A DNA stretch of 64,000 nucleotides from Oscillospiraceae bacterium (GCA_015064095.1 SVSW01000002.1:27002-91001); one strand, 5' to 3'. Positions 3,183 to 54,080 are shown, counted from the stretch's first letter. Numbers and translations: made by a program. Notes: generated by a model not told the origin, from the sequence alone.

Positions 3183-3248
3183 CTTTATCTCCTTTTGCTG
3201 AATTTTTCGTGATCTTCTCCGTTTTGCCGCATCGGCGACAAATTTTGC

Positions 3249-3277
3249 TTGACAATTTTATAAAACGGATATATAAT
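3249..3277 (+). promoter_or_regulatory. consensus sigma-A promoter for tRNA-Gly
   Basis: TTGACA 3249-3254, 17-nt spacer, TATAAT 3272-3277. The tRNA 5' end lies 10 nt downstream. Confidence 0.65.
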
Positions 3278-3286
3278 GTCATTTAC

Positions 3287-3360
3287 GCGGGTATAGTCTA
3301 ATGGTAAAACTTCGGCTTCCCAAGCCGACCACGCGGGTTCGATTCCCGTTACCCGCTCCA
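3287..3360 (+). tRNA. tRNA-Gly (anticodon CCC), CCA encoded
   Basis: Cloverleaf read by eye. The acceptor GCGGGTA pairs with TACCCGC. The anticodon arm is TCGGC-TTCCCAA-GCCGA. The T-arm is GGTTCGATTCC and the 3' end is TCCA. Confidence 0.95.
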
Positions 3361-3363
3361 TCG

Positions 3364-3406
3364 GCAGTGCAGCCCCAAATCCGAGGGCGGGCACTGCTGA
3401 TTTTTT
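3364..3406 (+). terminator. rho-independent terminator after tRNA-Gly
   Basis: GCAGTGC...GCACTGC stem followed by TGATTTTTT. Confidence 0.6.
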
Positions 3407-3469
3407 ATTTATATATTAGAATTATATCACAAAAAGCCCCCGTGTCAAGCAAAAAAGTGCGCGAATTGC

Positions 3470-3498
3470 TTGAAAATCGTTTGTTTATATGATATAAT
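3470..3498 (+). promoter_or_regulatory. sigma-A promoter upstream of hisS (TTGAAA-17-TATAAT)
   Basis: TTGAAA 3470-3475 and TATAAT 3493-3498. There is no room for a T-box leader before the hisS ATG. Confidence 0.55.
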
Positions 3499-3540
3499 AA
3501 GTTGATTATAATGCAAAAGTTTTTCTTTAAGGAGTTTAAC

Positions 3541-35703: not shown

Positions 35704-36552
35704 ATGAATCCAGTTTTAAAATATCGTGGCGGAAAATCTCGTGAAATTCCCCGTTTTCTTCAATACATACCGGATGACTTTAACAGATATATTGAGCCTT
35801 TTTTTGGCGGAGGTGCAGTTTATTTCCATCTTGAACCTGAAAATGCTATTATCAATGATGCTAACGAGCGGTTGATGACCTTTTATTCTCAATTGCGAGA
35901 TCAGTATCCACTTATGCGACAGCAGTTGGACGACATTCAGCGGGTGTATGAGTTGAATCAGGCAGAATATAAGAGAATGAAAGCCTTAACACCCAATGAT
36001 AGAGTTCCTAATGCAAATGAGGAACTTTATTATCGTATGAGAGAACTATTTAATCATCCAGACGATACATATTTAGATGGGGTTTTGTATTTCTTTATCA
36101 ATAAAACCGCCTACTCGGGAATGATTAGATACAATAATAACGGTGATTATAATGTTCCGTTCGGTAGATACCCAAATCTTAACACTCGACTTGTAACACA
36201 ACAACACAGCGAGCTTTTGCAAAACGCAGAATTATTCAATCTTGATTATAGTCATATTTTTGATATGGCGCAAGAAGATGATTTTATCTTTTTAGACCCT
36301 CCATACGATTGTGTTTTTAATGACTATGGAAACATCGATATGATGAATGGTTTTGATGAAGCGGAGCATATACGTTTAGCGGATGATTTTAGAAATCTTC
36401 CATGTAGAGCGTTGATGATTATTGGGAAAACTCCTCTCACCGAAGAATTATATGGTGATTTCATTTTTGATGAGTATTACAAAAACTATGCGGTAAACAT
36501 TAGAAATCGTTTCAAGAACGATAAAATGCATATCGTAGTAAAAAATTATTGA
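35704..36552 (+). CDS. Dam-family (D12 class) site-specific DNA adenine N6-methyltransferase
   Basis: KYRGGKS, EPFFGGGAV (SAM binding) and the catalytic DPPY are present. Codon usage is AT-rich and unlike the flanks. Confidence 0.9.
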   Translation: MNPVLKYRGGKSREIPRFLQYIPDDFNRYIEPFFGGGAVYFHLEPENAIINDANERLMTFYSQLRDQYPLMRQQLDDIQRVYELNQAEYKRMKALTPNDRVPNANEELYYRMRELFNHPDDTYLDGVLYFFINKTAYSGMIRYNNNGDYNVPFGRYPNLNTRLVTQQHSELLQNAELFNLDYSHIFDMAQEDDFIFLDPPYDCVFNDYGNIDMMNGFDEAEHIRLADDFRNLPCRALMIIGKTPLTEELYGDFIFDEYYKNYAVNIRNRFKNDKMHIVVKNY

Positions 36553-36562
36553 GGTAATAGGC

Positions 36563-38251
36563 ATGGCAAGACTGGACAATAAAGTTTTGTTTTTTACAAC
36601 TTCACCACGAACTCCGGCAAAGATGATCCCTGAAATTGGATTGCTTTGTGATAAATTCGAAGGAAAACCATGGAATAGAATTACACAAGAACAATATATT
36701 GATGAACTTGCGGAAAGTAACTTTTTCGAGGGAACAGGCTCCCCATCTGATAAAGCATTTAGTGCGCGTGATAGAATAAATCGTGCTCCTAAAGCATTAG
36801 GTTTTGTCGACTTGAAACCAAATATTGCACTAACCGATGCTGGTCGTGCTTTAATTTCGGGAAAAAGACCGCAAGAGATTTTTCTGCGTCAATTACTCAA
36901 ATTTCAATTACCTTCACCGTATCACACAGAAAACACCAAAATAAGCGGTACATTTTTTGTGCGTCCATATTTGGAAGTATTGCGATTAATCTATGACCTT
37001 GAATATTTAACCTTTGATGAGTTAAAAATCTTTGCTGTTCAAATCACAGACTATCATAGGTATGAAGAAGTTAAAGATAAAATCTTGAATTTCAGAAAAG
37101 ATAAAGAGTTACATCGTGGACAGTATAAACGATTTATAAATGATGTATGGACAAATGCCGTCTTAGAAATTCATAATGACAGAATTGCCGAAGGTAGAAC
37201 AAGGACAAGAGAAACAAGAGATGCCAGCATAAATACCTTTGTGAAAACTCAAAAAGGGAATATGCGGGATTATGCTGATGCTTGTTTTAGATATTTGAGA
37301 TTTACCGGACTTGTATCCATCGCACACAAAAGCAGGACGATTTCAATTTTCGATGACAAAAAGAGAGATGTTGAATTTATCCTTGTTAATGTCAATCGTA
37401 ACCCTGTTTTCGTGGATGATGAGGATAATTATAAAGCACATTTATTCGATGCTACCACTCCCGAACTATATACAGACAATGTTGAGAATATTATAGATGT
37501 TATTCTTCGCATGAGTAAGTTGACAAGACGTGATTTGGCGGGCTACGATATTGAATCACTAAAAAATTTGCGAGATGACATTGTAGCTCAACACAAAGAA
37601 AATGTTATTCACGAACAAATTGCTGAAATTAAGTCATATGCACTATATTCAGAAATAATCGATACGTTTAACGAAATCGTTTCGGATGAATATTATGATG
37701 CTCCGCTTATGTTTGAGTATAATACTTGGCGGGCCATGACTATGCTTGATGGTGGTAATATTAAAGGCAACTTCAAATTTGATGATATTGGTCAGCCTTT
37801 GTCTACCGCATCTGGGAATATGCCGGATATTGAGTGCGATTATGATGATTTTTCTTTGGCTGTAGAAGTTACGCTACAGTCTGGACAGCGACAGTACGAA
37901 GCCGAAGGAGAACCTGTCGCACGTCATTATGGTCAGTTAAAGAAAAAGTCCGGTAAAGATACTTATTGCTTATTCATTGCGCCGACAATCAATGCAGCAA
38001 CATTGGCTCACTTCTACGGACTGAATCATTTATCAATCGCTCTTTATGGTGGAAAATCTAAGATAATACCGCTTGAATTAGATCAGTTTATGAAGCTTGT
38101 TGAAAATTCATATAGTTATAAAACTCAACCTACACCGACTGACATTCGTCATTTTCTCGATGGCGCTTTGAAATTATGTGAAAAAGCAGTTGATGAAAAT
38201 AATTGGCGCTGTGGCATTCAAGCCTGTGTTGATATGTGGTTAGCATCATAG
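36563..38251 (+). CDS. AlwI/BstNBI/PleI-family type II(S) restriction endonuclease
   Basis: The translation shares block patterns I recall from this family: TSPRTPAKMIPE..FEGKPW, FSARDRINRAPKALGFV, FLRQLLKFQLPSP, MRDYADACFRYLRFTGL, ASGNMPDIE..VEVT..GQRQYEAEGEPVARHY and LFIAP. Confidence 0.75.
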   Translation: MARLDNKVLFFTTSPRTPAKMIPEIGLLCDKFEGKPWNRITQEQYIDELAESNFFEGTGSPSDKAFSARDRINRAPKALGFVDLKPNIALTDAGRALISGKRPQEIFLRQLLKFQLPSPYHTENTKISGTFFVRPYLEVLRLIYDLEYLTFDELKIFAVQITDYHRYEEVKDKILNFRKDKELHRGQYKRFINDVWTNAVLEIHNDRIAEGRTRTRETRDASINTFVKTQKGNMRDYADACFRYLRFTGLVSIAHKSRTISIFDDKKRDVEFILVNVNRNPVFVDDEDNYKAHLFDATTPELYTDNVENIIDVILRMSKLTRRDLAGYDIESLKNLRDDIVAQHKENVIHEQIAEIKSYALYSEIIDTFNEIVSDEYYDAPLMFEYNTWRAMTMLDGGNIKGNFKFDDIGQPLSTASGNMPDIECDYDDFSLAVEVTLQSGQRQYEAEGEPVARHYGQLKKKSGKDTYCLFIAPTINAATLAHFYGLNHLSIALYGGKSKIIPLELDQFMKLVENSYSYKTQPTPTDIRHFLDGALKLCEKAVDENNWRCGIQACVDMWLAS

Positions 38252-38316: not shown

Positions 38317-38540
38317 AAATTAATGCGAAATCTCATGCAAAACCCTCGGTCACCTTTACACGAAACATACATGAAAGTGTCATAGTAGGTTACACACTTT
38401 CAAAAGGGGTGTAACAATAAAAAGCGGAACAGCCAATAACTATACCGCATAACGAAATCAATTATTCAGTTTAGATACAAGAGCCACCCATTTGGTCCCC
38501 CTCTCTCCGAAAGGAAGGCTTTTTGGCTTTCCGTAGAACA

Positions 38541-38577
38541 AAAAAGAGCCCCCCTTTTTAAGAGAGGCTCTTTTTTT
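38541..38577 (-). terminator. terminator downstream of the aro operon
   Basis: AGAGCC..GGCTCT stem flanked by an A-run and a T-run. Confidence 0.65.
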
Positions 38578-38582
38578 CGTTT

Positions 38583-39608
38583 TTATAATTTATCCGCGAT
38601 GTCGTAGATAAGTCTTTCCGTCTTTTCCCAGCCGAGGCACGGGTCGGTGATCGACTTGCCGTATACGTCGTTTTCATCGATCTTCTGGCAGCCGTCCTCG
38701 ATATAGCTCTCGATCATAAGTCCCTTGACGAGCGAACGGATATCGTTCGAGTGCGTCAGGCTGTAAAGAACGTCCTTCGATATTCTTATCTGCTCCTCGT
38801 ACTTCTTGCCCGAATTTGCGTGGTTCGTATCGATCACGACACCCGGATTTTTAAGACCCGACGCGGCATAAAGACCGTGAAGCGAAATAAGATCCTCATA
38901 GTGATAGTTCGGCATTGATTTGCCGTGCTTATCGACGTATCCGCGCAAGATCGCGTGAGCGTACTCGTTTCCCGACGAGTTGACCTCCCAGCCGCGATAA
39001 ATGAACGTGTGCGCGTGCTGTGCCGCCGTGATCGCGTTCATCATGACCGAAAGATCGCCGCCCGTTGGATTTTTCATGCCGACGGGGATATCAAGTCCGC
39101 TTGCCGTCAGGCGGTGGTCCTGATTTTCCACCGAGCGCGCACCGATCGCAACGTACGACAGAAGATCCGAAAGATAACGGTAGTTCGCAGGGTAAAGCAT
39201 CTCATCGGCACAGCAGAGCCCCGTTTCCGTCAGAGCGCGGATATGCAGGTGGCGGATCGACACGATCCCCTTCAGCATATCGGGCTTTTCCATCGGATCG
39301 GGCTGGTGGAGCATTCCCTTATAGCCGTCACCCGTCGTTCTCGGCTTATTCGTGTAGATACGCGGGATTATAACTATTTTATCCTCGACCTTCTCCTGAA
39401 CGCGCGCTAAGCGGTGGATATAATCCATAACTGCGTCCTCTCGGTCTGCCGAGCACGGCCCGATGACGAGCGCGAATTTATTTGATTCGCCCGTAAATAT
39501 CTTCTTTATCTCCTCGTCGCGCGCGGCTTTTTTCTCTGCCGCCTCGGCTGAAAGGGGGTACATTTCTTTTATTTCCTTCGGTATCGGGAGTTTTCTTACG
39601 AATTCCAT
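38583..39608 (-). CDS. 3-deoxy-7-phosphoheptulonate (DAHP) synthase, class I (AroF/G/H-like)
   Basis: 341 aa with VIGPCSADRED, IIPRIYTNKPRTT..GYKGMLHQPDP and IESYIEDG. Confidence 0.9.
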   Translation of the reverse strand: MEFVRKLPIPKEIKEMYPLSAEAAEKKAARDEEIKKIFTGESNKFALVIGPCSADREDAVMDYIHRLARVQEKVEDKIVIIPRIYTNKPRTTGDGYKGMLHQPDPMEKPDMLKGIVSIRHLHIRALTETGLCCADEMLYPANYRYLSDLLSYVAIGARSVENQDHRLTASGLDIPVGMKNPTGGDLSVMMNAITAAQHAHTFIYRGWEVNSSGNEYAHAILRGYVDKHGKSMPNYHYEDLISLHGLYAASGLKNPGVVIDTNHANSGKKYEEQIRISKDVLYSLTHSNDIRSLVKGLMIESYIEDGCQKIDENDVYGKSITDPCLGWEKTERLIYDIADKL

Positions 39609-39635: not shown

Positions 39636-40493
39636 TTATTTTTTATCGAAAAGCGTGCGGCGTGCGCCGGCTTTTCTCATCGTTTCCTGCATTTTTTCGC
39701 GTTCTCCGACGGCGAGCGCTGCGCGAAATCTCTCAAATTCCGCGGAAAACGCGTCCATCTGTTCGAGCAGCTTTTCGCGGTTCAAAAGGAAAAGCTCGCT
39801 CCACATGACGTCGTTTATCTTCGAGATCCTCGTGAGATCTCGGAACGAGTCGCCCGTGTATTTCTCAAGTCCCTCTTTTTCGTTGCATGTCATAAGAGTG
39901 ACTGCTATGACGTGCGTGAGCTGTGAAAGAAACGCGATCATTTCATCGTGCTCTGCCGGCGTAAGCTCGCTGATCCTCGAAAAGCCGAGCTCCTCGCCGA
40001 GCTTCTTTGCAAGCTCGACTGCCTCTTTCGTGTTCTTCTTTGTTGGGGTGACAATAAAGTTCGCGCCCTCGAAGACCCGATCGTCGGCGTACTCCACTCC
40101 GCTTCGCTCGCGGCCTGCCATCGGGTGCGCGGCGATAAACTCAACGTCGGGACGCAAAATGCTTTGCACCCGCCCGACGATCTCCCCCTTTACGCCCGTG
40201 ACGTCCGTGATAACGGTGTTCGGCGAGAGCAGCTGCTGGTTTTTCTCGATCCACTCGACGAACGCGCCGGGATACAGCGCGAAGATAACGAGCTCTGCCT
40301 CGGCTATCATTTTTTCGTCGATGCCCACTTCTCCTTTGTTTATTATTCCTTTTTCCTTTGCGAACTCAATATCCTCTTGTCGCAAGGTCAAGGCGTTGAC
40401 GGTATATCCTCAGCGCGACAGCGCCATGGCGTAGCTTCCGCCCATCAGTCCGAGTCCGACTATTAAAATATTCGTATTTTTATCAAGCTTCAT
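39636..40493 (-). pseudogene. tyrA: prephenate dehydrogenase interrupted by a single in-frame TGA at codon 28
   Basis: ATG (complement of 40491-40493) gives MKLDKNTNILIVGLGLMGGSYAMALSR, then TGA (complement of 40410-40412). The same frame continues GYTVNALTLRQEDIEFAKEKG... for 257 codons to the stop at 39636. The track shows only the 251-aa ORF restarting at TTG 40391. Confidence 0.75.
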
Positions 40494-41697
40494 ATGTCTT
40501 TATCTCTATTCCAAGTGATGCAAGTTTCGCAAAAAAGTCGGGAAAGCTCTTTGCAACGGCCTCCGCGCCGTTTATAACTCCGCCCGTTTTGGTGCAAAGC
40601 ACCGAAAGCGCCATCACTATCCTATGATCGTTATGGCCGCACAGCTCCTCCTTCGGCGCGTGCAGGCTCGCAGGATATACGACCACCGAATCTCCCTTTA
40701 CCTTAACCGCAGTGCCGAATTTTCGAAGCTCCGCCGCCATTGCCTCGGCGCGATCGCTCTCCTTTATTTTAAGACGTGCCGTGCCTGTGAAGATTCCGCC
40801 GTGCTTTGCCGCTGCCGCCGCGAACAAAACGGGTCCGAGGTCGGGGCAATCGCCGATATGCACCGTCGGTATCCCCAGATCAAGCATTTTTAAATAATCG
40901 CCGCACACGCTGTCGCCCTGAAGGCTGCCCCGGCGCAAGCCGTCGATCTCGACCTCGCCGCCGAGCGTATTCAGCGCCGAAAAGAACGAAGCTCCCGAAT
41001 AGTCGCCCTCGACCTCGGTGACGCGCGGCATATATTTTTGACCGCCTGCGATCTTTATTTTATGGTCGCCCTCGAATTTTACGCTCACGCCGAACTCGGC
41101 AAGCGATGCGACCGTCATATCTATATACGGACGGCTCACAACGGGCGGCGTAAGCTCGATCTCACTGTCACCGTCAAGCAGCGGCAACGAGAAAAGAAGG
41201 CCGCTGACGAACTGGCTGCTTATGTCGCCTGCTATAATATACTTTCCCGATCTCAGCGGTCCGCGAAGGACGACCGAGGTTTTATCCTGGGAAAAAACGA
41301 GATCTTTCTCCTTTGCCAGCTTTGAATAGACGCTCATGGGCCGCGCAAGCAACGACGGTGCACCCGTCATTATCACGTTCTTGCCCGAAAGCCACGCAAG
41401 CGGCGTTAAAAATCTGAACGTGCTTCCGCTTTCGCGGCAGGAAAGCGCCTCCCGCGGCGCGGCGGTCATTATATCAGTCCCGTGAACGCGGACGTTTCCG
41501 TTTTCGTATTCAAATCGCGCGCCGAGTGCCGTCAGGCAGTCTATCGTTGCTCTGACGTCGTCGCAATCCGAAACGCCGCGCACGACACTCTCTCCCTGTG
41601 CCAGCGCGGCGCAGATGAGCAGGCGGTGCGCCATGCTCTTTGACGGGGGTGCTGAGATCCTCCCGACCGCGCGCGAGGGGTTTATTTTTACTTTCAT
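40483..41697 (-). CDS. aroA: 3-phosphoshikimate 1-carboxyvinyltransferase (EPSP synthase)
   Basis: PSKSMAHRLLICAAL, then the LFAAAAA..GG region and DHRIVMAL. The start is at ATG 41697. Confidence 0.92.
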   Translation of the reverse strand: MKVKINPSRAVGRISAPPSKSMAHRLLICAALAQGESVVRGVSDCDDVRATIDCLTALGARFEYENGNVRVHGTDIMTAAPREALSCRESGSTFRFLTPLAWLSGKNVIMTGAPSLLARPMSVYSKLAKEKDLVFSQDKTSVVLRGPLRSGKYIIAGDISSQFVSGLLFSLPLLDGDSEIELTPPVVSRPYIDMTVASLAEFGVSVKFEGDHKIKIAGGQKYMPRVTEVEGDYSGASFFSALNTLGGEVEIDGLRRGSLQGDSVCGDYLKMLDLGIPTVHIGDCPDLGPVLFAAAAAKHGGIFTGTARLKIKESDRAEAMAAELRKFGTAVKVKGDSVVVYPASLHAPKEELCGHNDHRIVMALSVLCTKTGGVINGAEAVAKSFPDFFAKLASLGIEIKTYEA

Positions 41698-41701
41698 TTC
41701 C

Positions 41702-42130
41702 TTACCTGCCCAAAAGAATGTCCAAAGCCTCAAGATATCCGTCTGTTCCCTTGCCCTTTACGGTGGCGATACATTCGTCGCGTACGTAGCTCACCTGACG
41801 GAAGTCTTCCCTGTCTTCCACCTTCGAGATATGCACCTCGACTGTCGGTATCTTCACGGCGGCGAGCGCATCACGCAGAGCAACTGACGTGTGAGTATAA
41901 GCGCCGGGGTTTATGACTATCCCGTCGGTCTTTTCAAAATACGCCGCCTGTATCCTATCGACGAGCGCGCCCTCGTGGTTCGACTGATATATCTCGACCG
42001 TGACGCCTCGCTCCGCGGCGTGAAATTCCACCTTTCGGCAAAGCTCGGCATAGGTCTCTTTTCCGTAAATATCAGGCTCGCGTATCCCGAGCATATTTAT
42101 ATTAGGTCCGTTTATGACTAATATCTTCAT
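41702..42130 (-). CDS. aroQ: type II 3-dehydroquinate dehydratase
   Basis: MKILVINGPNINMLGIREPDIYG and NPGAYTHTSVALRDA motifs. Confidence 0.92.
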   Translation of the reverse strand: MKILVINGPNINMLGIREPDIYGKETYAELCRKVEFHAAERGVTVEIYQSNHEGALVDRIQAAYFEKTDGIVINPGAYTHTSVALRDALAAVKIPTVEVHISKVEDREDFRQVSYVRDECIATVKGKGTDGYLEALDILLGR

Positions 42131-43365
42131 TTTAAAAAATCCTCTTCTATTTTATTTACCGTGTGCTCTACCGACTCGTCGGTGACTACTCTTACGTCGG
42201 ACGTCGACACGTATATTCCGTATCTTTCCGCGTAGCGCTTTCTTATCGCCTCGGCGCTCGATGCCGTCGGTCTGTTTTCTGTCGGAACGAGCTTTTCGAT
42301 CGCGCGGTCAAGAAAATATATCCTTCCGCTTCTTTTCAGCGCGCGTACGTTTTCCTGCCTCAATATCGCGCCACCGCCCGTGGCTATGACAGCTCCCGTG
42401 ACCGTGTTCGCCGTTTGTCGTACGACATCGCTCTCGATTTCGCGAAAGCCCGCCTCGCCGCACTCGGCGAAGATATCACTGATCTTTTTGCCCGTTTTTT
42501 TCTCTATCAGCACGTCGGTATCGTAAAATTCGCGCCCGAGTTTTATCGCAAGCGCCCGTCCGACCGTCGTTTTTCCCGATGCGGGCATTCCCGTCAAAAC
42601 TATATTTTCTTTATCCGATCTTATTTTTGCATAGATCTTCTCGGTCGGCGCGTCCGCCTCATTGCCGACGAACAGACGCGACGCACGAACTCCCTGCGAA
42701 ACGAGCATATAAAGTCCGCCCTCCGCCGCTATTCCTCTTTCCTTTGCGTTCAGGACAAGATCCGTGCGAAGCGGATTATAGACCGCGTCCAAAACTCCCG
42801 AAAGGCGCTCAAAATGCGATATATCTATCGCGCAGCCGTCGGGGTTCGGGAACATTCCGCACGGGGTGGTATTTATTATCACCTCGGCGTCCGAGTGGTT
42901 CTTCACCGCCTCGCCGTACGTTATCACGCCTTCGCCCGCGCTTCGGCTGACTGTCAATATCTCCCTTGCGCCAAGCTCTGAGCAGACGGCTCTTGCGGTC
43001 CTTGACGTGCCGCCCGTGCCGAGTATCAACACTTTTTTGCCGTAAAGCTCGATGCCTGCGTGGGCGATCAGCTCCGAAAGGCCGTAAAAATCGGTATTAT
43101 ATCCGTAAAGCTTGCCGCCGCGATTGACAACGGTATTGACCGCGCCGATATTTTTTGCGCGTGCGTCGATCTCGTGAAGGAACGGTATGACCGCCTGCTT
43201 ATACGGGATCGTGACGTTCACGGCGCAAAAATCCGCAGCTCTCATAAAGCCTTCAAGCTCGCTCGGTGCAAGCTCGCAAAGCTCGTATTCATAATCGGCG
43301 CACGCCGCGTGAATCTCGCGCGAAAAGCTGTGACCCAGCCTCTCGCCGATAAGTCCGTATTTCAT
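42127..43365 (-). CDS. bifunctional shikimate dehydrogenase / shikimate kinase fusion
   Basis: The N-terminal AroE part has GERLGHSFS, NVTIPYK and NTD. The C-terminal AroK part has the P-loop GMPASGKTTVGRALA and DTD. The start is at ATG 43365. Confidence 0.88.
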   Translation of the reverse strand: MKYGLIGERLGHSFSREIHAACADYEYELCELAPSELEGFMRAADFCAVNVTIPYKQAVIPFLHEIDARAKNIGAVNTVVNRGGKLYGYNTDFYGLSELIAHAGIELYGKKVLILGTGGTSRTARAVCSELGAREILTVSRSAGEGVITYGEAVKNHSDAEVIINTTPCGMFPNPDGCAIDISHFERLSGVLDAVYNPLRTDLVLNAKERGIAAEGGLYMLVSQGVRASRLFVGNEADAPTEKIYAKIRSDKENIVLTGMPASGKTTVGRALAIKLGREFYDTDVLIEKKTGKKISDIFAECGEAGFREIESDVVRQTANTVTGAVIATGGGAILRQENVRALKRSGRIYFLDRAIEKLVPTENRPTASSAEAIRKRYAERYGIYVSTSDVRVVTDESVEHTVNKIEEDFLK

Positions 43366-43367
43366 CT

Positions 43368-44435
43368 TTACTCCTTTTTGCCGCCTGCGAGAAGATCGTA
43401 TATAACGATCGCCGTGAGGCAATCGACGACTGCACGCGCGCGATGGATTATCGCAGGATCGTGCCGACCCTTAAGATCCAAGACCGCGTTTTCGCCCGTC
43501 TTTATATCGACCGTTCTCTGGCTTTTGAATATCGAGGGCGTTGGGCGCACCGCGCACCGAAAAACGATCGGCATTCCGTTCGTTATTCCCCCGTTTATGC
43601 CGCCTGCGTTGTTCGTTTCGGTCCTGATCTCTGCGCCCTCGGAATATATCGGATCGTTTGCCTCGCTGCCGCGCATCTTTGAGATCCCGAAGCCCGCGCC
43701 GAACTCAACTCCCTTGATCCCCGGGATCGAGAACATCGCGTGCGAGATCAGGCTCTCGACGCTGTCAAACCACGGCTCTCCGAGCCCCGTCGGCACGCCG
43801 TAAACGTAAGTTTCAAGCACGCCGCCGACAGAATCGCCCTCACTTGCCGCCGCTTCGATCTGCGACTTCATTTTCTCACCGATATTTGCGTCAAGCGTCG
43901 GAAAATCCGTTGTGTCAAGGTATTTTATATCGGAAACGACATCAGAAAATCCTCTGTCCTCAATCTCTGCGAGCGAAGCGATATGCGTGCCGATATAAAT
44001 TCCCTTTTTATTCAGCTCCGAGAGCATTATCGCGCCCGCCGCAACGATCGGTGCCGTCAGACGTCCCGAAAAATGTCCGCCGCCGCGACGGTCCTGATAT
44101 CCGCCGTATTTATACTCTGCCGTAAGATCGGCGTGACCCGGACGCGCAAGTGTTCCGTAATCGGAGCTTCTTTTATTTTCGTTCGGTATCAAAATGCAAA
44201 GCGGAGCTCCCGTGGCGCGTCCCTCGTACTCGCCGCTGACGATCGAATACGCGTCACGCTCGACGCGTGCGGTCGATATCTTGCCCGACGGGCGGCGCTG
44301 AGTGAGCTTTTTTTCGATCAGCTCGCGGTCAATGGCCGTGCCGGGCGCAAGCCCGTCGATGACGGCGCCTATCATCTCACCGTGGCTCTCGCCGAAAAGC
44401 GTGATGCTCACGTTATTTCCGAAAGTATTTTTCAT
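43368..44435 (-). CDS. aroC: chorismate synthase
   Basis: FGESHG, RPGHAD and GRHDP motifs. Length 355 aa. Confidence 0.93.
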   Translation of the reverse strand: MKNTFGNNVSITLFGESHGEMIGAVIDGLAPGTAIDRELIEKKLTQRRPSGKISTARVERDAYSIVSGEYEGRATGAPLCILIPNENKRSSDYGTLARPGHADLTAEYKYGGYQDRRGGGHFSGRLTAPIVAAGAIMLSELNKKGIYIGTHIASLAEIEDRGFSDVVSDIKYLDTTDFPTLDANIGEKMKSQIEAAASEGDSVGGVLETYVYGVPTGLGEPWFDSVESLISHAMFSIPGIKGVEFGAGFGISKMRGSEANDPIYSEGAEIRTETNNAGGINGGITNGMPIVFRCAVRPTPSIFKSQRTVDIKTGENAVLDLKGRHDPAIIHRARAVVDCLTAIVIYDLLAGGKKE

Positions 44436-45418
44436 TTTAAAAATCCTTTTATCTCGTTTTTAAATCTCTCGATCGGCATCTTCCGTATCTCGCACGAGCC
44501 GATCTTTTCTACGTACACGACCGAGATCTCGTCACCGTCGAGCTTTTTATCGTGCCCGATCGCCGCGATCACCTTATCTGCATCGACTTCGATCTTTGTC
44601 GGCAGGCCGAGCGTTTTGAGGACCTTTTTGAGCCTTTCCTTTTCCGCACACACGGGTATCATTCCGAGCGCCACGCACTCGCCGTGATAAAGCCCCGTGA
44701 CGCTCTCTATCCCGTGCCCGACCGTGTGGCCGAAATTGAGGATCCTTCGCTGTCCCTTTTCCTTCTCGTCCGCCTCGACGACCGCCTTTTTTATCATAAG
44801 CGAACGGTATATAACGGTGTCGATATCAGCTCCGTTCTCTATCAGCTCGAAAAGCTCGCGGTCCGAGGTCGCCGCCATTTTTACGGCTTCGGCAAGCCCT
44901 GCCGAGATCTGGCGTTTATCTAAGGTCACAAGCGTGTCGGGGTCTATTACGACCGCCTTCGGCTGATAAAATGCGCCGACGATATTCTTTATTCCGCCGA
45001 GATTTATCGCGGTCTTGCCGCCGATCGACGAATCGACCTGCGAAAGAAGCGTCGTCGGTACTCCGTAAAAATCAATTCCGCGCATATACGACGCGGCGCA
45101 AAAGCCCGCAAGGTCGCCGCAAACACCGCCGCCGACTGCGACGACGCAATCCGTGCGCGTAAATCCGAGCGAAAGGAGAGTTTTTTGGACCTTTTCAAAC
45201 ACCTCAATGCTCTTTGATCCCTCACCCGTCGGCACGGTCAGAATATGTGCGTCCTTTGCCTGACGGGCGACCGCCTCGGCGTACTCCTTCGGCACTCCGT
45301 CGTCCGTGAGCACGAGCGTTTTGCGGTCAAGATCAAATATCTTGCCCGCGCGCAAAAGCGCGCCGCGCTCTATTATTATATTGTAAGAATTTTTCCCGAG
45401 TTCAACGGTTAATTTCAT
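44432..45418 (-). CDS. aroB: 3-dehydroquinate synthase
   Basis: GGGVCGDLAGF, NFGHTVGH and the metal-ligand context are present. The start is assumed at the internal Met (MKLTVELG) of the track ORF, whose TTG start is at 45436. Confidence 0.9.
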   Translation of the reverse strand: MKLTVELGKNSYNIIIERGALLRAGKIFDLDRKTLVLTDDGVPKEYAEAVARQAKDAHILTVPTGEGSKSIEVFEKVQKTLLSLGFTRTDCVVAVGGGVCGDLAGFCAASYMRGIDFYGVPTTLLSQVDSSIGGKTAINLGGIKNIVGAFYQPKAVVIDPDTLVTLDKRQISAGLAEAVKMAATSDRELFELIENGADIDTVIYRSLMIKKAVVEADEKEKGQRRILNFGHTVGHGIESVTGLYHGECVALGMIPVCAEKERLKKVLKTLGLPTKIEVDADKVIAAIGHDKKLDGDEISVVYVEKIGSCEIRKMPIERFKNEIKGFLK

Positions 45419-45432
45419 TTTTCGTCCTCTTT

Positions 45433-46530
45433 TCAATCTCTGTGGCGGTACGACCCGATAAGCTTTAGCTTTTCGCAGCAGCTCCCAAGCTCCGCGAGCA
45501 TCTTTTCGCCCTCGTCACTGTCTATATTTCCCTCTGCCTCAACGTAGAAATAATACTGCCAAAGCAGCCTTTTGTCAGGCCTGCTTCGAAGCGACTGCAT
45601 ATTAAAGCCGTGCTTTCCTATTATATCTATCGCCTGCGCGAGCGAGCCCGCCTCGTTTTTGACGGTGAACATAAGTATAAATCTCATATCCATTCCGCGT
45701 GCCCCGAAATATCGGTTCCGCGCCGCCGAGAGGATAGCAAAGCGCGTTGTATTGTTCGACGATGCATTTATCGCGCGCGCCGCGACCGTAAGACCGTATT
45801 TTTTGCCCGCCTGCTCGGACGCGATCGCCGCAACCGTCGGATCTCCGAGCGCCCTCACTCTCTCCGCTGCGAGCGCGGTGTTCGCAAACTCAAGCGTATC
45901 GTATCCGTGCGCTCTTATATATTCCTCGCACTGATGCAGCGCCTGCGGGTGGCTGACGACCGTTTTTATCTCCCTCGGATCAGCTCCCGGCAATGTCAGA
46001 AGATCCTGCACGATCGCAAGATCGTACGTTCCGTTTATATAAAGCGTTCCCGAATAAAGCAGGTCCGCGACCGTGCCGACCTCGCCTGCCGAGCTGTTCT
46101 CGATCGGAAGCACGACAGCGTCGCACTCGCCGCGCTCAACGGCTTCGTACGCTTCGGGGAAATCGGCGTACCCGATCTTCTCGGCTGACGGAAATATCTT
46201 CTCCGCCGCGATATGCGCAAACGCGCCCTCAGTGCCGCTGTACGCGATCTTCATGCCCTCGATCAATCGGCTCTGATAGTGCCGCGACACTTCCATGGTC
46301 TTTCTGAGAAACTGCACGTAGCATTCGCGGATCTCAGGATCGGCATCGGAAATAAATTCGGAGTTTTTCGCGATCAGTGCGTCCTCACGCGCGCCGTCGT
46401 ATACCGGCAGAGCGTTCTCCTTTTTGTATTCCGCGGCAAGCCTTGCAGCTTCCATTCGGCGCAGAAAAAGACGCGCCATCTCGCGATCGACTTCGTCTAT
46501 TATCTTTCTCGCTTTTTCCAGTTTGTTCAT
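45433..46530 (-). CDS. pheA: bifunctional chorismate mutase / prephenate dehydratase (P-protein)
   Basis: The N-terminal AroQ-type CM helix is IDEVDREMARLFLRRMEAA. It is followed by a PDT domain (IENSSAGEV, TRF) and a C-terminal ACT domain. The start is at ATG 46530. Confidence 0.88.
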   Translation of the reverse strand: MNKLEKARKIIDEVDREMARLFLRRMEAARLAAEYKKENALPVYDGAREDALIAKNSEFISDADPEIRECYVQFLRKTMEVSRHYQSRLIEGMKIAYSGTEGAFAHIAAEKIFPSAEKIGYADFPEAYEAVERGECDAVVLPIENSSAGEVGTVADLLYSGTLYINGTYDLAIVQDLLTLPGADPREIKTVVSHPQALHQCEEYIRAHGYDTLEFANTALAAERVRALGDPTVAAIASEQAGKKYGLTVAARAINASSNNTTRFAILSAARNRYFGARGMDMRFILMFTVKNEAGSLAQAIDIIGKHGFNMQSLRSRPDKRLLWQYYFYVEAEGNIDSDEGEKMLAELGSCCEKLKLIGSYRHRD

Positions 46531-46544
46531 ATCGATCTCCTTTG

Positions 46545-46558
46545 TTAACATTGTTAAC
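46545..46558. promoter_or_regulatory. palindromic operator TTAACATTGTTAAC, copy 1 (in the pheA operon leader)
   Basis: Perfect 6-1-6 palindrome TTAACA-T-TGTTAA. It lies between the predicted +1 and the RBS of pheA. Confidence 0.55.
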
Positions 46559-46567
46559 TTGGTGTTT

Positions 46568-46596
46568 ATTATACTACGCACTTTCCCCCTTGTCAA
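46568..46596 (-). promoter_or_regulatory. consensus sigma-A promoter of the aro super-operon
   Basis: On the minus strand, TTGACA is the complement of 46591-46596 and TATAAT is the complement of 46568-46573, with a 17-nt spacer. Confidence 0.65.
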
Positions 46597-46617
46597 GAGA
46601 AAAAGTCAATAAAACCC

Positions 46618-46645
46618 TTGATTTTTTTAATTTTTGTGGTATAAT
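46618..46645 (+). promoter_or_regulatory. promoter of the TetR gene (TTGATT-16-TATAAT)
   Basis: TTGATT 46618-46623, TATAAT 46640-46645. Confidence 0.5.
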
Positions 46646-46658
46646 TAACATTGTTAAC
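46645..46658. promoter_or_regulatory. palindromic operator TTAACATTGTTAAC, copy 2 (overlaps -10/+1 of the TetR promoter)
   Basis: An identical 14-mer exactly 100 bp from copy 1. Confidence 0.55.
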
Positions 46659-46676
46659 AAGCTTTGGAGGTCAATA

Positions 46677-47246
46677 ATGCACGATAACGAAGAATATCTC
46701 GTTCCCGACGAGCTGCAAAAGGCTCTCATCATTGCCGGAATGCGCGAGATCGAACGCCACGGGCTTGCGGACTTTTCCTTGCGCCGCGTTGCCGCGGATT
46801 GCTCGGTCTCATGTGCCGCGCCGTACCGTCACTTCAAAAATAAAAGCGAGCTTATACTCGCCATAATCTTCTATGTAAATCAGCGCCGTGAGCTGCTTGA
46901 AAATCAGATAATTGAGTGCTTTGAGGGCGATATTCGCCGTACCGTGACTGAGCTTTGCGTTGCAAACGTCAGATTTTTCGCGGCAAATCCGAATTTTCGG
47001 CATATTATGCTGCTTGACGCCGCCTCGCTCGACGAAGATCAGCGCGCAGCACAAAGCCGTATGTTTTCAAGGCTTTCGGAGCTTATCTCCTCTCTTACGG
47101 GCGATAAGGACGAGGGTGAACGCCGCGCCGTTGCCGCGCGGGCGATGATCCTCGGCTTCACTCATATGCTCGGCTCGGGCGAGCTTCAAAATAACGATAA
47201 GATCTTCGACGATATAAGAAGATCCTTTGAGAAGATCTTTGAGTGA
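46677..47246 (+). CDS. TetR/AcrR family transcriptional regulator
   Basis: The N-terminal HTH is FSLRRVAADCSVSCAAPYRHFKNKSEL. The start is at ATG 46677 behind GGAGG. The track ORF start 46377 is an antisense read-through extension. Confidence 0.88.
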   Translation: MHDNEEYLVPDELQKALIIAGMREIERHGLADFSLRRVAADCSVSCAAPYRHFKNKSELILAIIFYVNQRRELLENQIIECFEGDIRRTVTELCVANVRFFAANPNFRHIMLLDAASLDEDQRAAQSRMFSRLSELISSLTGDKDEGERRAVAARAMILGFTHMLGSGELQNNDKIFDDIRRSFEKIFE

Positions 47247-47280
47247 GAGCTTGCCGCATAAAAATTAAATAAAAAAGCAA

Positions 47281-47325
47281 AGAACAGGCATACAGGAGTT
47301 TTTCCTGTATGCCTGTTCTTTTATT
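47281..47325. terminator. bidirectional terminator (TetR gene / upp)
   Basis: A 16-bp stem, AGAACAGGCATACAGG..CCTGTATGCCTGTTCT, with flanking A and T runs. Confidence 0.8.
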
Positions 47326-49376: not shown

Positions 49377-49642
49377 TTTTACTCTCCTGTTCTTTTTTTC
49401 TTTCACGCCTTATTTTATTTTTTGGCCGTGTTCATTTCATTTTAACACCGTTGTCGTAAAAAGTCAAGGTTTGTAAAAAAATTATAAAAATTTTGTCTGC
49501 GGCTTTTCAACCGTAAAACAAAAAATGCTTTTTGCCACAGCAAAAAGCTACCTTACCTCTTCACTTTTCACTATTACCTTTTACCTCTGAAAAATATTCT
49601 CATCGGAGGGAGAGAAAAGTGAAGAGTGAAGAGTGAAAAAGT

Positions 49643-49676
49643 AAAAACAGACAAGCTTCGAAAGAAGCTTGTCTGT
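49643..49676 (-). terminator. terminator after tRNA-Ser
   Basis: ACAGACAAGCTTC-GAAA-GAAGCTTGTCTGT with a T-run on the minus strand. Confidence 0.75.
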
Positions 49677-49679
49677 TTT

Positions 49680-49771
49680 TGGCGGAGAGAAAGGGATTCG
49701 AACCCTTGTTGGGGTATAAGCCCAAACACGATTTCCAGTCGTGCGCCTTAGACCAGCTCAGCCATCTCTCC
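49680..49771 (-). tRNA. tRNA-Ser (anticodon GGA), long variable arm, CCA encoded
   Basis: The reverse complement is GGAGAGATGGCTGAGCTGGTCTAAGGCGCACGACTGGAAATCGTG...GGTTCGAATCCCTTTCTCTCCGCCA. The anticodon loop is CTGGAAA. Confidence 0.95.
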
Positions 49772-50009
49772 ATTCGGCTTTGTGCCGTACTTTGGTATTA
49801 TATCACACTGTTTTTTGTTTGTCAAGTTCATTTTTGCGTTTTTTTGACCCTAAATTGTAAAAGTTATGTAAAAAATACGGCAAAGTCATTGTAAAACTAA
49901 CTAAATTATGTTATAATATATTATATATTACGCGCGCGGGCACGCGCGGATAAAATATGATATCTTACCTACATATAGAACAACAAAAGAAAGGAAAAAA
50001 TAACGAACA

Positions 50010-51467
50010 ATGTCTTATATTGACGAAGTTAAAGTCATTTGGGAAATGGCTAAAAAATCGCTCGCGGAAACTATGACGGAATCTGCCGTTAAGCTCTGGC
50101 TCGGCGATCTTTCGCTCGTTTCCTTTGAAAACAACACGGTCGGCTTTACGATCGAATCCGAATTCAAATACAACACAATACATAAACAGCTCTACAACGT
50201 CAAGATCGCGGACGCTTTCTCGAAGATCATGGGCTTCCCCGTTTCCGTTAACATTGAATTTACCGGAAAGGCGGCTTCGACAGAGGAGCTTATCCGCCGC
50301 ATACGCAGCGAAAACGCAGAGGCTATCGAGCGCGGTGCTTACGCAGGCGAGATCAAAAACAAGCCCACCGAGGAAATGGTTGGCGGCACGATACCTCCCT
50401 ACAACTTTGAATATACCTTTGATAACTTCATCGTCGGCGAATCAAATAAATTTGCTCACGCCGCCTGCCTTGCGGTTGCAAACAATCCGGCAAAGGACTA
50501 TAATCCCCTTTTTATATACGGACCCTCCGGTCTTGGCAAGACGCATCTGCTCTACGCAATAACGAACAAAATAAAAAAAGACAAGCCCGACACGCGCATT
50601 ATATATATAAAAGGTGAGGATTTCACAAATCAGCTGATAGAATGTCTTTCCCGACAGGCAATGCCGGAGTTCCGCCAGAAATACCGCGGCTGTGACGTTT
50701 TGCTTATCGACGATATTCAGTTCATCGCCGGCAAGGATTCAACTCAGCAGGAATTTTTCCACACCTTTAACGCCCTTTACGAAGACCATAAGCAGATAAT
50801 TCTGACCTCCGACCGTCCGCCGCGCGAGATCAAAACTCTTGAGGACCGCTTAAAGAGCCGCTTTGAATGGGGTCTTATTGCCGATATAGACAAGCCCGAC
50901 GACGAGCTTCGTATCGCAATAATCAAGAAAAAAGCGGAGCAGGTCAAAATAGATCTTTCCTCCGAGGTGCTCTCTTATCTTGCTCTCAATCTTCGCTCAA
51001 ACGTGCGCCAGATCGAGGGTGCTATCAAAAAGCTCGCGGCGCTCAGCTTCCTTTCAGGCAAGGAGATAACGCTTGAAAACACAAAATCCTGCATCGGAGA
51101 TCTGCTTGACGGCGCTGAGCCGACGACTGTCACGGTCGACAAGATATTCGGTGCTATGTACAAGCATTACGGAGTTTCAAAGGAGGATATCCTGAGCAAA
51201 AAGCGCAACAAGGAGATCGCAATGCCAAGACATATTGCGATATATCTTATGCGCAGGCTGACGGATATGTCCTTACCCAATATCGGAAAGCTTATAGGAC
51301 GCGACCATTCGACCGTCAAGGCCTCCGAGGATCTTATACAGAAAAAATACCGAGAGGACCCGAATTTCAGCCACGAGATCGAGGATATAAAAAGCGAGAT
51401 CGTTGGCAGCGGCAAGCCGATGCTCGAAAATCTCGATAAAACGGCAGGCAACGCAGAGTTCTTATAA
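50010..51467 (+). CDS. dnaA: chromosomal replication initiator protein DnaA
   Basis: 485 aa with the AAA+ Walker A GPSGLGKTHL, the box VII region and the C-terminal DNA-binding helix (HSTV). Confidence 0.97.
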   Translation: MSYIDEVKVIWEMAKKSLAETMTESAVKLWLGDLSLVSFENNTVGFTIESEFKYNTIHKQLYNVKIADAFSKIMGFPVSVNIEFTGKAASTEELIRRIRSENAEAIERGAYAGEIKNKPTEEMVGGTIPPYNFEYTFDNFIVGESNKFAHAACLAVANNPAKDYNPLFIYGPSGLGKTHLLYAITNKIKKDKPDTRIIYIKGEDFTNQLIECLSRQAMPEFRQKYRGCDVLLIDDIQFIAGKDSTQQEFFHTFNALYEDHKQIILTSDRPPREIKTLEDRLKSRFEWGLIADIDKPDDELRIAIIKKKAEQVKIDLSSEVLSYLALNLRSNVRQIEGAIKKLAALSFLSGKEITLENTKSCIGDLLDGAEPTTVTVDKIFGAMYKHYGVSKEDILSKKRNKEIAMPRHIAIYLMRRLTDMSLPNIGKLIGRDHSTVKASEDLIQKKYREDPNFSHEIEDIKSEIVGSGKPMLENLDKTAGNAEFL

Positions 51468-51801
51468 ACCTGTTGAAAAGCTGTTAGTTCCCTGTTTAAA
51501 ACTTTTGACGGACACTGACAAAGCATGACGGCTAAAAAATTTATCCACATTTTGTCAACACTCAATCAAAAGCATTTCAACATGACAGACACTGCCAAAA
51601 AAATCCCGAAGATCAGCGCCTTCAAGGCTCTCTTGATTTTCCACATTTTCCAAAGCCCCTAATAATACGAAGACTGCTCTTTCATTCTTCCATTCATTCT
51701 TTCTTTCTTTCTTTTTTCGCGCACGCGCGTAGAGAAAAAAATAAAAAGTGTGGAAAACTTTGTAATTTAATCTATTAATAAAAACCGAAAGGAAAAATAA
51801 A
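51468..51801. other. candidate oriC segment (dnaA-dnaN intergenic) with DnaA boxes and AT-rich right end
   Basis: The boxes are a perfect TTATCCACA (51541-51549), TTTTCCACA (51637-51645), TGTGGAAAA (51748-51756) and TGTTGAAAA (51471-51479). The AT-rich stretch TTTGTAATTTAATCTATTAATAAAAA lies next to the last box. Confidence 0.6.
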
Positions 51802-52950
51802 ATGAAGATCATATTTAAAAGACAAACGGCTATTGCCTCAGCGTCCCCTCTTATGTGCGCGACCGCATCAAGATCCGTTCTCCCGATAGGCGACGGTATG
51901 CTCATTGAGGCTAAAAATCCAGATATATGCATCTTTACGACCTACGATCTCGAAAAGGGTATGCGTACCGCAGTCGAGGCAAAGGTCATAGAGGAAGGCT
52001 CTTATATCATAAGCGCTCAGAAGTTTATCCAGACTTTAAAGGTCATGGAAGGTGATGAGGTAACACTCACCGTTGACGATAAGCTCTCCGCTTGCATCTC
52101 ATCGGGCACATCAACTCACCGTATGTCGGCACTTCCGAGCTCCGATTTTCCGAAGCTGCCCGATCTTAAAAGTCCTCTCGGCTACGAGCTCCCTGCCGAC
52201 ACTCTCAAAAAAATGCTCGCAAAAACCATGTATGCGATCGGTGTAAACGATCAGCGACCCGTTCTCAACGGCTGCTTCTTCCGCGTGACGGACGACCGTT
52301 TGCTTCTCGTTTCCTGTGACAGCTTCCGCCTCGCTCGCTGCGCAACTCATATGACGGTTGATAACCGCAACGACGACGGCGAATATCTCCATTATTCGTT
52401 TATTATGCCCGTAAGAACGGTTAATGAGCTTTATAAGCTGCTCCCCGACAGCGACGAGAATATACGCATCTATATGATGAGAAAGCATATGGTCATAATG
52501 CTCGGCGAAATTACATTCTTCTCAAGCCTTATTGAGGGTGAGTACATCGATTACGACCGAATTATAATAAAGACCCACAGAATTTCGATAGAGACAGACC
52601 GCGCCGCTTTAATTTCCGCGCTTGAGCGCGCTGCCCTCGTTACAGAGGAGCGCGTTGCCGGATCCGTACGTTCTCACGTTAAGCTTGAGATCGCCGGAAA
52701 TTCTCTTAAAATTTCCGCAAATTCTTCGACAGGCAGCACCTTTGACGAGATCTTCGTCAAGCACGAGGGTGAGGATATAATCATCGCCTTCAATAACAGA
52801 TATCTTCTCGAAAGCCTGCGCGCCTGCACCGGCGAAAAAATAAAGATATCGCTCTCAACCCCGCTTTCAAGCATCAATATCGAGCCCGTTGACGGCGAGG
52901 AGAACGAAGAAGACATCTTCATGCTCCTGCCCGTTAAAATGAAGGATTAA
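51802..52950 (+). CDS. dnaN: DNA polymerase III subunit beta
   Basis: 382 aa at the conserved position after dnaA with a sliding-clamp three-domain pattern. Confidence 0.95.
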   Translation: MKIIFKRQTAIASASPLMCATASRSVLPIGDGMLIEAKNPDICIFTTYDLEKGMRTAVEAKVIEEGSYIISAQKFIQTLKVMEGDEVTLTVDDKLSACISSGTSTHRMSALPSSDFPKLPDLKSPLGYELPADTLKKMLAKTMYAIGVNDQRPVLNGCFFRVTDDRLLLVSCDSFRLARCATHMTVDNRNDDGEYLHYSFIMPVRTVNELYKLLPDSDENIRIYMMRKHMVIMLGEITFFSSLIEGEYIDYDRIIIKTHRISIETDRAALISALERAALVTEERVAGSVRSHVKLEIAGNSLKISANSSTGSTFDEIFVKHEGEDIIIAFNNRYLLESLRACTGEKIKISLSTPLSSINIEPVDGEENEEDIFMLLPVKMKD

Positions 52951-54080
52951 TGATATGTAATAAAATAGAAGTTTCCGGTTTTCGAAATATTGACTGCGCG
53001 ACGGTCGAGTTTTCTCCGTCCGTCAATATTCTTATCGGAAACAACGCGCAGGGAAAGACTAATTTGCTCGAGGCTATCTATTTTATAACTCTCGGCAAGA
53101 GCTTTCGCTCGGCGACCGAAACGGAGATGATCGGCTTTGAGCGCGAATTTGCATCTGTTTCGCTCGATTTTTCCGACGCTGTGAGAGATCAGAATATATC
53201 CGTTTCCATCTTTCGCGACAAAAGAAAAAAATTCGAGCAGAACGGCGTTAAGATATTCAAAATGTCCGATGTTGTCGGCGAGCTGCGCGCGGTGCTTTTT
53301 TGCCCCGAGCATCTTTCGATAATCAAGGACGGTCCGTCCCTTCGGCGCGGATTTCTTGACGTGGCGATAAGCCAGCTTCGCCCCTCTTATCTTCATTCGC
53401 TTCAAAAATACAATAAGTTTTTAAAGCAGAGAAACAAGCTTTTAAAGGACGCACAGGAAGACCGCACCTCGTTTGATCAGACCGTTGAATTTTGGTCGGC
53501 GGGGCTTGCCGCCGAGGGTGCAAGGCTTGCCCGAATGAGAAAAAAATATACCGAGATCGCCGACGGATACGTTAAAAAATATTTTTCGGAGATGACGGGC
53601 GGTGCGGAGCTGCCGCAGCTCAAATACGCAGGCTCGGCAAAGCAGGATATTGAGCTTTACGAGGACGAAAAAGCGACCGAGGCGAGATTTTACGAGCTTT
53701 TGACCTCAAATCTTGAGCGCGAGATCGCAGTTGGCTCAACGCTTTGGGGAGCGCACAAGGACGATATAGATATTTCGATAAACGGCCGTGAGGCAAGGGT
53801 TTATTGCTCTCAGGGTCAGCAAAGATCGCTCGCGCTTTCAATGAAGCTCGCCGAGGGCGAGATCTGCAAGAACGACTGCGGAGAATATCCCGTTTTCCTG
53901 TTTGACGACGTTTTCTCCGAGCTTGATTCTTTGCGACGCGCGTATCTTATCAATGAAATAAAGGGAAAGCAGGTCATAATGACCGGCTGCGAAACGGGAA
54001 TTTTCGAGCAGGCTCAAAATGCGAATATAATTTCCGTTGAAAACGGTAAATATTTTCAAAATCGATCGAAAGATGAATAA
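52950..54080 (+). CDS. recF: DNA replication/repair protein RecF
   Basis: Walker A GNNAQGKTNLLEA, SMC-like signature SQGQQRSLALSMKLAE and Walker B FLFDDVFSELD. Confidence 0.95.
   Translation: MICNKIEVSGFRNIDCATVEFSPSVNILIGNNAQGKTNLLEAIYFITLGKSFRSATETEMIGFEREFASVSLDFSDAVRDQNISVSIFRDKRKKFEQNGVKIFKMSDVVGELRAVLFCPEHLSIIKDGPSLRRGFLDVAISQLRPSYLHSLQKYNKFLKQRNKLLKDAQEDRTSFDQTVEFWSAGLAAEGARLARMRKKYTEIADGYVKKYFSEMTGGAELPQLKYAGSAKQDIELYEDEKATEARFYELLTSNLEREIAVGSTLWGAHKDDIDISINGREARVYCSQGQQRSLALSMKLAEGEICKNDCGEYPVFLFDDVFSELDSLRRAYLINEIKGKQVIMTGCETGIFEQAQNANIISVENGKYFQNRSKDE

Follow-up and report, generated by a model that had tools for sequence, protein, structure and literature searches.

In Tn10 the gene for the repressor TetR(B) is divergent from its target, and the shared region between them holds two operators that lie on both promoters and serve autoregulation as well. 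Each tetO is a 15-bp odd-centred palindrome of the form ...TATCA-N-TGATA.... Other TetR-family proteins repress biosynthetic pathways, among them the actinobacterial McbR (methionine and cysteine), BioQ (biotin) and AmtR. The aromatic amino-acid genes of Firmicutes are usually under T-box, TRAP or attenuation control. In Burkholderia pseudomallei, ChIP-seq placed the TetR-like protein BP1026B_II1561 directly upstream of shikimate-pathway genes; it is reported to up-regulate a shikimate dehydrogenase/dehydroquinase/permease cluster, and a porin gene has a binding site upstream of it too (PMC11358695).

The locus described here lies in a 64-kb stretch of Oscillospiraceae DNA, all of which was analysed and which we call the window. 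Its paired sites resemble the tetO of Tn10: they are 15 bp long and odd-centred, share the CA-N-TG core (...TAACA-N-TGTTA...), and sit on both of two divergent promoters. The differences are that eight genes of primary biosynthesis, rather than an efflux pump, form the presumed target, that the operators are ~100 bp apart rather than adjacent, and that the C-terminal domain of the regulator is unrelated to that of Tn10 TetR beyond the fold. With McbR, BioQ and AmtR the system has in common the TetR fold, primary anabolic genes as the predicted target, and AAC...GTT-type palindromes at or just downstream of promoters. It differs from them in phylum, pathway and operator sequence, with no specific sequence relationship; AmtR was among the Foldseek matches of the window protein. 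McbR and AmtR also command large dispersed regulons, whereas one operon plus tetR itself is what is evident here. Compared by description, BP1026B_II1561 is a proteobacterial, non-adjacent, up-regulating protein, whereas the window TetR adjoins an operon for the whole pathway. T-boxes, TRAP and attenuators do the same physiological job as the switch proposed below, but the pheA leader here is ~31 nt long and carries no such element.

No published description of the regulator or its motif, operator sequence included, was found in the literature; a "TetR" hit in PMC9026213 proved to be a fragment of the word "tetrahydrodipicolinate", and BP1026B_II1561 was the one TetR-like protein that the papers found connect with shikimate genes. 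The locus very probably holds a repressor switch for aromatic amino-acid synthesis that is ordinary in mechanism but new to the literature. Sequence comparisons support a TetR regulon, not assigned before, that would govern the making of aromatic amino acids in Oscillospirales-type Clostridia; its regulator falls in no named equivalog group. If true, this would put a name to the transcriptional regulator of aromatic amino-acid synthesis in a large set of Clostridia from gut and rumen, most of them uncultured, with relatives of the protein encoded in at least 394 species-level genomes. The principle is that of any TetR switch, and the finding is of value for the regulon it assigns and for the question of the ligand. 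Made up of a single protein, a 15-bp operator and a promoter of consensus strength, the switch would also be a compact part, possibly a biosensor for an aromatic-pathway metabolite once the ligand is known.

The aro operon

An earlier note on this DNA, made from the sequence alone, had described an aromatic super-operon. Its eight genes were recovered, tightly packed with overlaps or gaps of a few bases, and are followed by a terminator:

45433-46530, minus strand: pheA, first gene, with CM_2 (chorismate mutase), PDT (prephenate dehydratase) and ACT domains; 365-aa gene call
44432-45436, minus strand: aroB, 3-dehydroquinate synthase, likely ATG at 45418; domain search and gene call
43368-44435, minus strand: aroC, chorismate synthase; domain search
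42127-43365, minus strand: aroE-aroK fusion, shikimate dehydrogenase plus shikimate kinase; domain search
41702-42130, minus strand: aroQ, type II 3-dehydroquinate dehydratase, a 142-aa ORF assigned by eye and by operon position
40483-41697, minus strand: aroA, EPSP synthase; domain search
39636-40493, minus strand: tyrA, prephenate dehydrogenase, with an in-frame TGA at 40412-40410
38583-39608, minus strand: aroF/G-type DAHP synthase, last gene of the operon
38539-38570, minus strand: intrinsic terminator closing the operon, GAGCC...GGCTC followed by a T run

For aroQ, tblastn gave matches of 61-70% identity at the same operon position in orthologous loci. The TGA in tyrA is codon 28 (MALSR*GYTV), where orthologues in loci L093 and L167 have K (ALTKKGYQV); the remaining frame is intact. 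It could be a nonsense mutation or mark a pseudogene (tyrosine auxotrophy), or else be a sequencing error or a site of read-through.

Two features of the neighbourhood were noted. A restriction-modification pair adjoins the aro terminator on the plus strand (35704-38251), where a gene for a D12-class N6-adenine DNA methyltransferase (35704-36552) is followed by one for a restriction endonuclease of the AlwI family (36563-38251). On the other side, the tetR/aro switch is ~3 kb from the chromosomal replication-origin neighbourhood (49400-53000) with a tRNA on the minus strand (49683-49771), dnaA (50010-51467) and dnaN (51802-52950).

Two predicted operators on divergent promoters

The pheA start codon (ATG at 46530-46528) and that of tetR (ATG at 46677) enclose a divergent intergenic region of 146 bp, 46531-46676, which holds the following features:

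46568-46596, minus strand: aro operon promoter, TTGACA at 46596-46591, 17 nt, TATAAT at 46573-46568; 12/12 match to consensus
46544-46558: O_aro, predicted operator, GTTAACATTGTTAAC, a perfect 15-bp 7-1-7 palindrome, GTTAACA-T-TGTTAAC
46618-46645, plus strand: tetR promoter, TTGATT at 46618-46623, 16 nt, extended -10 TGgTATAAT at 46637-46645; 10/12 plus TG
46644-46658: O_tetR, second predicted operator, ATTAACATTGTTAAC, 13 of 14 specified positions

The earlier note had described much of this layout, and most of its description held. Start codons and an independent gene call agree on the 146-bp region, and a re-scan of the whole window located the two exact copies of TTAACATTGTTAAC at 46545-46558 and 46645-46658. 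A promoter scan returned the perfect TTGACA-17-TATAAT promoter that had been assigned to the operon; together with the sequence, it puts copy 1 between the predicted aro start and the pheA ribosome-binding site (RBS). Copy 2 had been placed on the -10 of the tetR promoter, and there the 14-mer does start at 46645, the base at which TGgTATAAT ends. The note was right about the core of the palindrome and wrong about its length, which is 15 bp (7-1-7) rather than 13 or 14 bp.

With up to two mismatches allowed, the only TTAACATTGTTAAC matches in the whole 64 kb are these two sites, each on both strands. Dinucleotide-preserving shuffles gave a mean of 0.19 matches, and none of 100 reached the four strand-wise matches observed. 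O_aro also tops the ranking in a PWM scan of the window, with 24.7 bits to 17.8 bits for O_tetR, and the scan found no further operator sites in the 64 kb. The one mismatch of O_tetR, an A in place of the outer G, arises because that base is part of the TATAAT hexamer.

Placing transcription starts 7 nt past each -10 hexamer gives a predicted +1 near 46561 for the operon and near 46652 for tetR. In the operon's transcript O_aro would then occupy roughly +4 to +18, past the -10 hexamer and ahead of the pheA RBS (AAAGGAG, 46543-46537). O_tetR would span about -8 to +7; it takes in the final two bases of the tetR -10 hexamer as well as the predicted start, and lies upstream of the tetR RBS (GGAGG, 46666-46670).

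The TetR-family regulator

The plus-strand side of the region leads into the regulator gene and its terminator:

46677-47246, plus strand: TetR-family regulator gene, 189 aa, assigned by PF00440, AlphaFold2, Foldseek and family alignment
47279-47321, both strands: bidirectional intrinsic terminator between tetR and convergent upp, 20-bp stem then T run

Because this terminator separates it from upp, tetR is monocistronic. The 189-aa product named in the earlier note was obtained again by an independent gene call, made on an identical contig from a metagenome, and its family assignment is secured by Pfam, where PF00440 (TetR_N) matches residues 20-63 with 35.0 bits against a cut-off of 24. The C-terminal part has a weak match to TetR_C_33 (25.4 bits, under the cut-off of 26.8). 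NCBIfam matches were all to TetR-family models and every one was under its equivalog cut-off; among named equivalogs (AcrR, BetI, SlmA, FabR, MtrR and others) the highest score was 31 bits, where the cut-offs are 118-300.

From an alignment of 42 sequences, AlphaFold2 gave a confident model with a mean pLDDT of 92.6 and the nine helices of the TetR architecture. Every one of the top 50 Foldseek matches listed against PDB belongs to the TetR family, at probability 1.00, with TM-scores of 0.6-0.76 and 12-21% identity; they are generic TetR structures, and none among them is specifically close or gives a hint of the ligand. Sequence matches to PDB entries are weak as well (best E = 3e-6) and mostly confined to the helix-turn-helix.

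The recognition helix of the window protein reads VSCAAPYRHF. Across the alignment of the homologue family the helix-turn-helix, FSLRRVA...SCAAPY[RK]HF, is invariant, in keeping with an invariant operator. The alignment also has conserved C-terminal residues (Y66, W71, D85, E92, F100, N104 and Y159), which are candidate pocket or hinge residues. A comparison of conserved residues turned up no positions that separate aro-linked from unlinked homologues.

The window lineage, which includes the homologues P0001 and P0002, has R71 and L159 where at least 92% of the family has W and Y; residue 101 is F here but W in close relatives. Compared with close homologues, the lineage has also lost a short stretch of some 4-5 residues from its C-terminal half. 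These lineage-specific residues and the deletion may alter the ligand response of the window TetR.

Co-conservation of regulator, operator and operon

A protein search for homologues of the window TetR returned 245 clusters at E<=1e-10, nearly all from Clostridia metagenome-assembled genomes. With one genome per species, a pattern scan gave 394 stretches that encode a relative, of which the best 80 (36-58% identity) were analysed. By tblastn, tetR is divergent from pheA-aroB-aroC(-aroEK-aroQ) in 59 of these best 80 loci and away from any aro operon in 14; the complete operon is present in L093, L167 and L190.

TTAACANTGTTAA, with at most one mismatch, was found in ~65 of the best 80 loci, including nearly all syntenic ones. 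It lies mostly 104-193 bp upstream of the tetR start (-349 in L004). A matrix from 60 sites reads GTTAACA-N-TGTTAAC with the centre base free, and the outer G and C, which were not used in selecting the sites, are 98% conserved. Across 589 kb of locus DNA, two sites of at least 17 bits fell outside tetR/aro intergenic regions, one at DegV genes (L069) and one in L077; no site stood beside trp or transporter genes in the 589 kb of flanks.

Position is conserved along with sequence. On the operon strand the order in every locus is TTGAC[AT], 16-17 nt, TATAAT, 9-19 nt, operator, RBS and ATG, with GTTAACANTGTTAAC found 9-19 nt past the operon TATAAT in almost all of the 59 tetR/aro-syntenic loci. 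The tetR-side promoter recurs in orthologues as TTGATT-17-TA(A/T)AAT, and among 61 strong-site loci, counting the window and L201, a second site at that promoter was detected in 26. Operators and promoter hexamers are kept on a diverged background, as a footprint over relatives with 89% and 58% protein identity shows; O_tetR is conserved in both (L201 and L001).

The operator follows the start of the operon rather than any one gene. In ~30 loci (among L002-L063) a gene for a 400-aa class I/II aminotransferase, absent from the window operon, lies between pheA and tetR (for example L042, 2611-3813), and promoter and operator precede whichever gene leads, pheA or the aminotransferase. With the aminotransferase as first gene, the operon also covers the final step in making Phe and Tyr. 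The operator likewise stays at the aro promoter where tetR is 0.7-2.8 kb off (L065, L072, L078 and L080), and in L190 it is at the aro promoter with tetR not in the flank.

The earlier note had suggested checking whether regulator, operator and operon are conserved together. They are, in ~60 species-level genomes with diverged intergenic background. The sites, their placement on the promoters, the protein family and this co-conservation across roughly 60 species are direct observations.

Among relatives whose genomes are public, L201 (GCA_965322945.1; TetR 89% identical) is the closest. It keeps both promoters and both operators (3000-4001), the latter at a spacing of 101 bp. Downstream of O_aro there is no aro operon; instead ~600 bp of repeat-containing non-coding DNA leads to a gene for 1604 aa. 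The tetR leader has an insertion of ~215 bp with an internal direct repeat. This arrangement could be a rearrangement or a mis-assembly.

The palindrome in other contexts

We also approached the association from the motif side, scanning metagenomes for TATAAT-N7-20-GTTAACANTGTTAAC, which gave at least 120 loci. Among the 120 matches listed, 23 have the site flanked by a match to the aro operon, to the aminotransferase or to a TetR homologue, and 18 have a TetR with the exact SCAAPY[RK]HF helix within a few hundred bases of it. Three or four of those 18 adjoin no aro genes. Such a TetR occurs with the site in non-aro context in L100, L149, L157 and the genome locus L069. By these associations the palindrome is a predicted TetR-type operator, which the SCAAPY[RK]HF helix accompanies outside the aro context too.

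At DegV-family (fatty-acid-binding) genes, GTTAACANTGTTAAC was seen behind TATAAT in L069 (3940-5520), L100 (880-1600), L085 and L127. TetRs with the same recognition helix in DegV context are 39% and 32% identical to the window protein. It appears from these sequences that one DNA-reading head has been re-used for another target, the DegV genes.

A second, unrelated TetR subfamily, with the helix GITATALYRHY, stands beside the palindrome in eight further loci among the matches listed (L118, L126, L128, L144, L174, L180, L183 and L196). The palindrome was also noted just behind TATAAT at MarR-family genes (L137, L139, L159) and at long-form leuA-like genes (L094, L109). Because the GITATALYRHY subfamily and the DegV genes also adjoin it, the palindrome alone does not identify its regulator, a caveat that applies to genomes with TetR paralogues.

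The proposed switch and its effector

We consider it highly likely that the TetR repressor, acting at O_aro and O_tetR, gates the aro operon and autoregulates. The earlier note's central proposal, TetR control of the operon, gains support from synteny, the fixed position of the operator, its tracking of the operon start, and recovery of the recognition helix when starting from the motif. It is favoured as well by the uniqueness of the two copies in the 64 kb, the scarcity of strong sites elsewhere in the 589 kb, the invariant recognition helix, the footprint in relatives and the lack of a competing RNA element. Weighing against it are the 14 homologue loci with tetR away from aro genes, the missing aro operon behind the operators of L201, the detection of a second site in no more than 26 of 61 strong-site loci, and the occurrence of the palindrome beside another TetR subfamily and DegV genes. 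Physical binding, repression and dimer stoichiometry we infer, and they would combine as follows. A homodimer of the 189-aa TetR would bind the 15-bp GTTAACA-N-TGTTAAC. On O_aro, just behind a sigma-70-type promoter of consensus strength, the dimer would act as a classical steric repressor, keeping RNA polymerase from binding, from forming the open complex or from leaving the promoter, and occupancy of that site would silence the whole eight-gene pheA-aroB-aroC-aroEK-aroQ-aroA-tyrA-aroF transcript. On O_tetR, a slightly weaker copy, it would limit the synthesis of TetR itself, giving negative autoregulation. A small molecule of the aromatic pathway would change affinity for DNA, either by release (the classic TetR logic) or by tighter binding (end-product co-repression).

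The direction of that change divides the repressor reading into two variants. Most characterised TetR proteins are released from DNA by their ligand, although FabR and DesT are natural family members with ligand-enhanced DNA binding. Release by a ligand, which the earlier note had in view, suits a biosynthetic operon badly, save where a precursor or some sign of starvation is the signal, and for such an operon an end-product co-repressor is as plausible as ligand release. The variant with reversed allostery, in which Phe, Tyr, prephenate or chorismate is a co-repressor that raises DNA binding, would be a logical design for an operon that makes chorismate, Phe and Tyr, and no RNA-level device was found that would provide end-product control in its place. 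Against it are the usual release of TetR proteins by ligand and the generic structural matches, which are uninformative about the ligand. Since Trp synthesis needs the chorismate made by this operon, a cell that shut the operon down in response to Phe or Tyr alone would run a risk. We regard this variant as a tentative possibility that falls somewhat short of probable.

A wider proposal can be framed, in which a reverse TetR with an aromatic co-repressor is the missing shikimate/Phe/Tyr end-product sensor of Oscillospirales-type gut Clostridia, and in which the SCAAPY[RK]HF/GTTAACANTGTTAAC head has been re-used with different sensor domains (DegV targets, for example). In its entirety we take it to be speculative and rather unlikely.

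Operator spacing

The two TTAACATTGTTAAC copies are exactly 100 bp apart, start to start. The earlier note had drawn attention to this exact spacing; the distance is correct for the window, but a special meaning for it is not borne out, as the spacing in relatives ranges over 98-161 bp. The relatives fall into classes of 98-103, 110-112 and 138-161 bp (few loci in the last). At 98-103 bp the second site overlaps the tetR -10 by 2-3 bases, and at 110-112 bp it starts 6 nt after; the classes are therefore explained by promoter geometry, that is, by the position of the second site relative to the tetR -10 hexamer. The 100 bp of the window is the commonest class, reflecting a conserved back-to-back promoter core.

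An exact 100-bp spacing would be required if a TetR tetramer bridged both operators in a DNA loop. The recurrence of 98-103 bp in several sub-clades would agree with a loop, as would the 101 bp kept by the relative of 89% identity despite an indel in the spacer. Yet the spacing varies by class, following the second site's position relative to the tetR -10; 35 of the 61 strong-site loci have no detectable second site; and the operator stands alone where tetR is displaced. A 15-bp TetR operator, moreover, normally takes a single dimer. Looping therefore seems to us very unlikely.

RNA structure and restriction sites

The palindrome might instead be a 5'-UTR RNA hairpin, or belong to another transcription factor or to a GTTAAC-specific restriction-modification system, all of which we judge extremely improbable on the following evidence. 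O_aro is transcribed within the pheA leader, but the predicted hairpin is weak (-3.9 kcal/mol, z = -0.85, with 39 of 200 shuffles folding as well) and leaves the RBS free. The single-base variation among sites is uncompensated and the centre base is free, which is how a site bound by protein varies and not how a paired RNA stem does. As to another factor, the same DNA word does occur beside other regulators in metagenomes, but away from aro genes, too, the site is accompanied by a TetR with the SCAAPY[RK]HF helix. GTTAAC is a palindrome of the restriction type and a restriction-modification system lies 8 kb away; that neighbour, with its D12 methyltransferase and AlwI-type endonuclease, does not have GTTAAC as its site and is unrelated. 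GTTAAC is rare in the window (6 observed, ~15 expected), and three of the six are in the divergent region.

A search of Rfam gave no match at E<=1 to any family over 46300-46900, and no T-box or riboswitch in the whole window or in 15 orthologous loci; nor was a terminator-like hairpin found between the aro promoter and pheA. The earlier remark that the pheA leader has no T-box, attenuator or terminator hairpin is thus upheld by Rfam and by the hairpin scan. Elsewhere, in L001, a Gut-1 RNA (Rfam RF01706, 71.9 bits) was matched at 527-602 on the minus strand, downstream of aroC.
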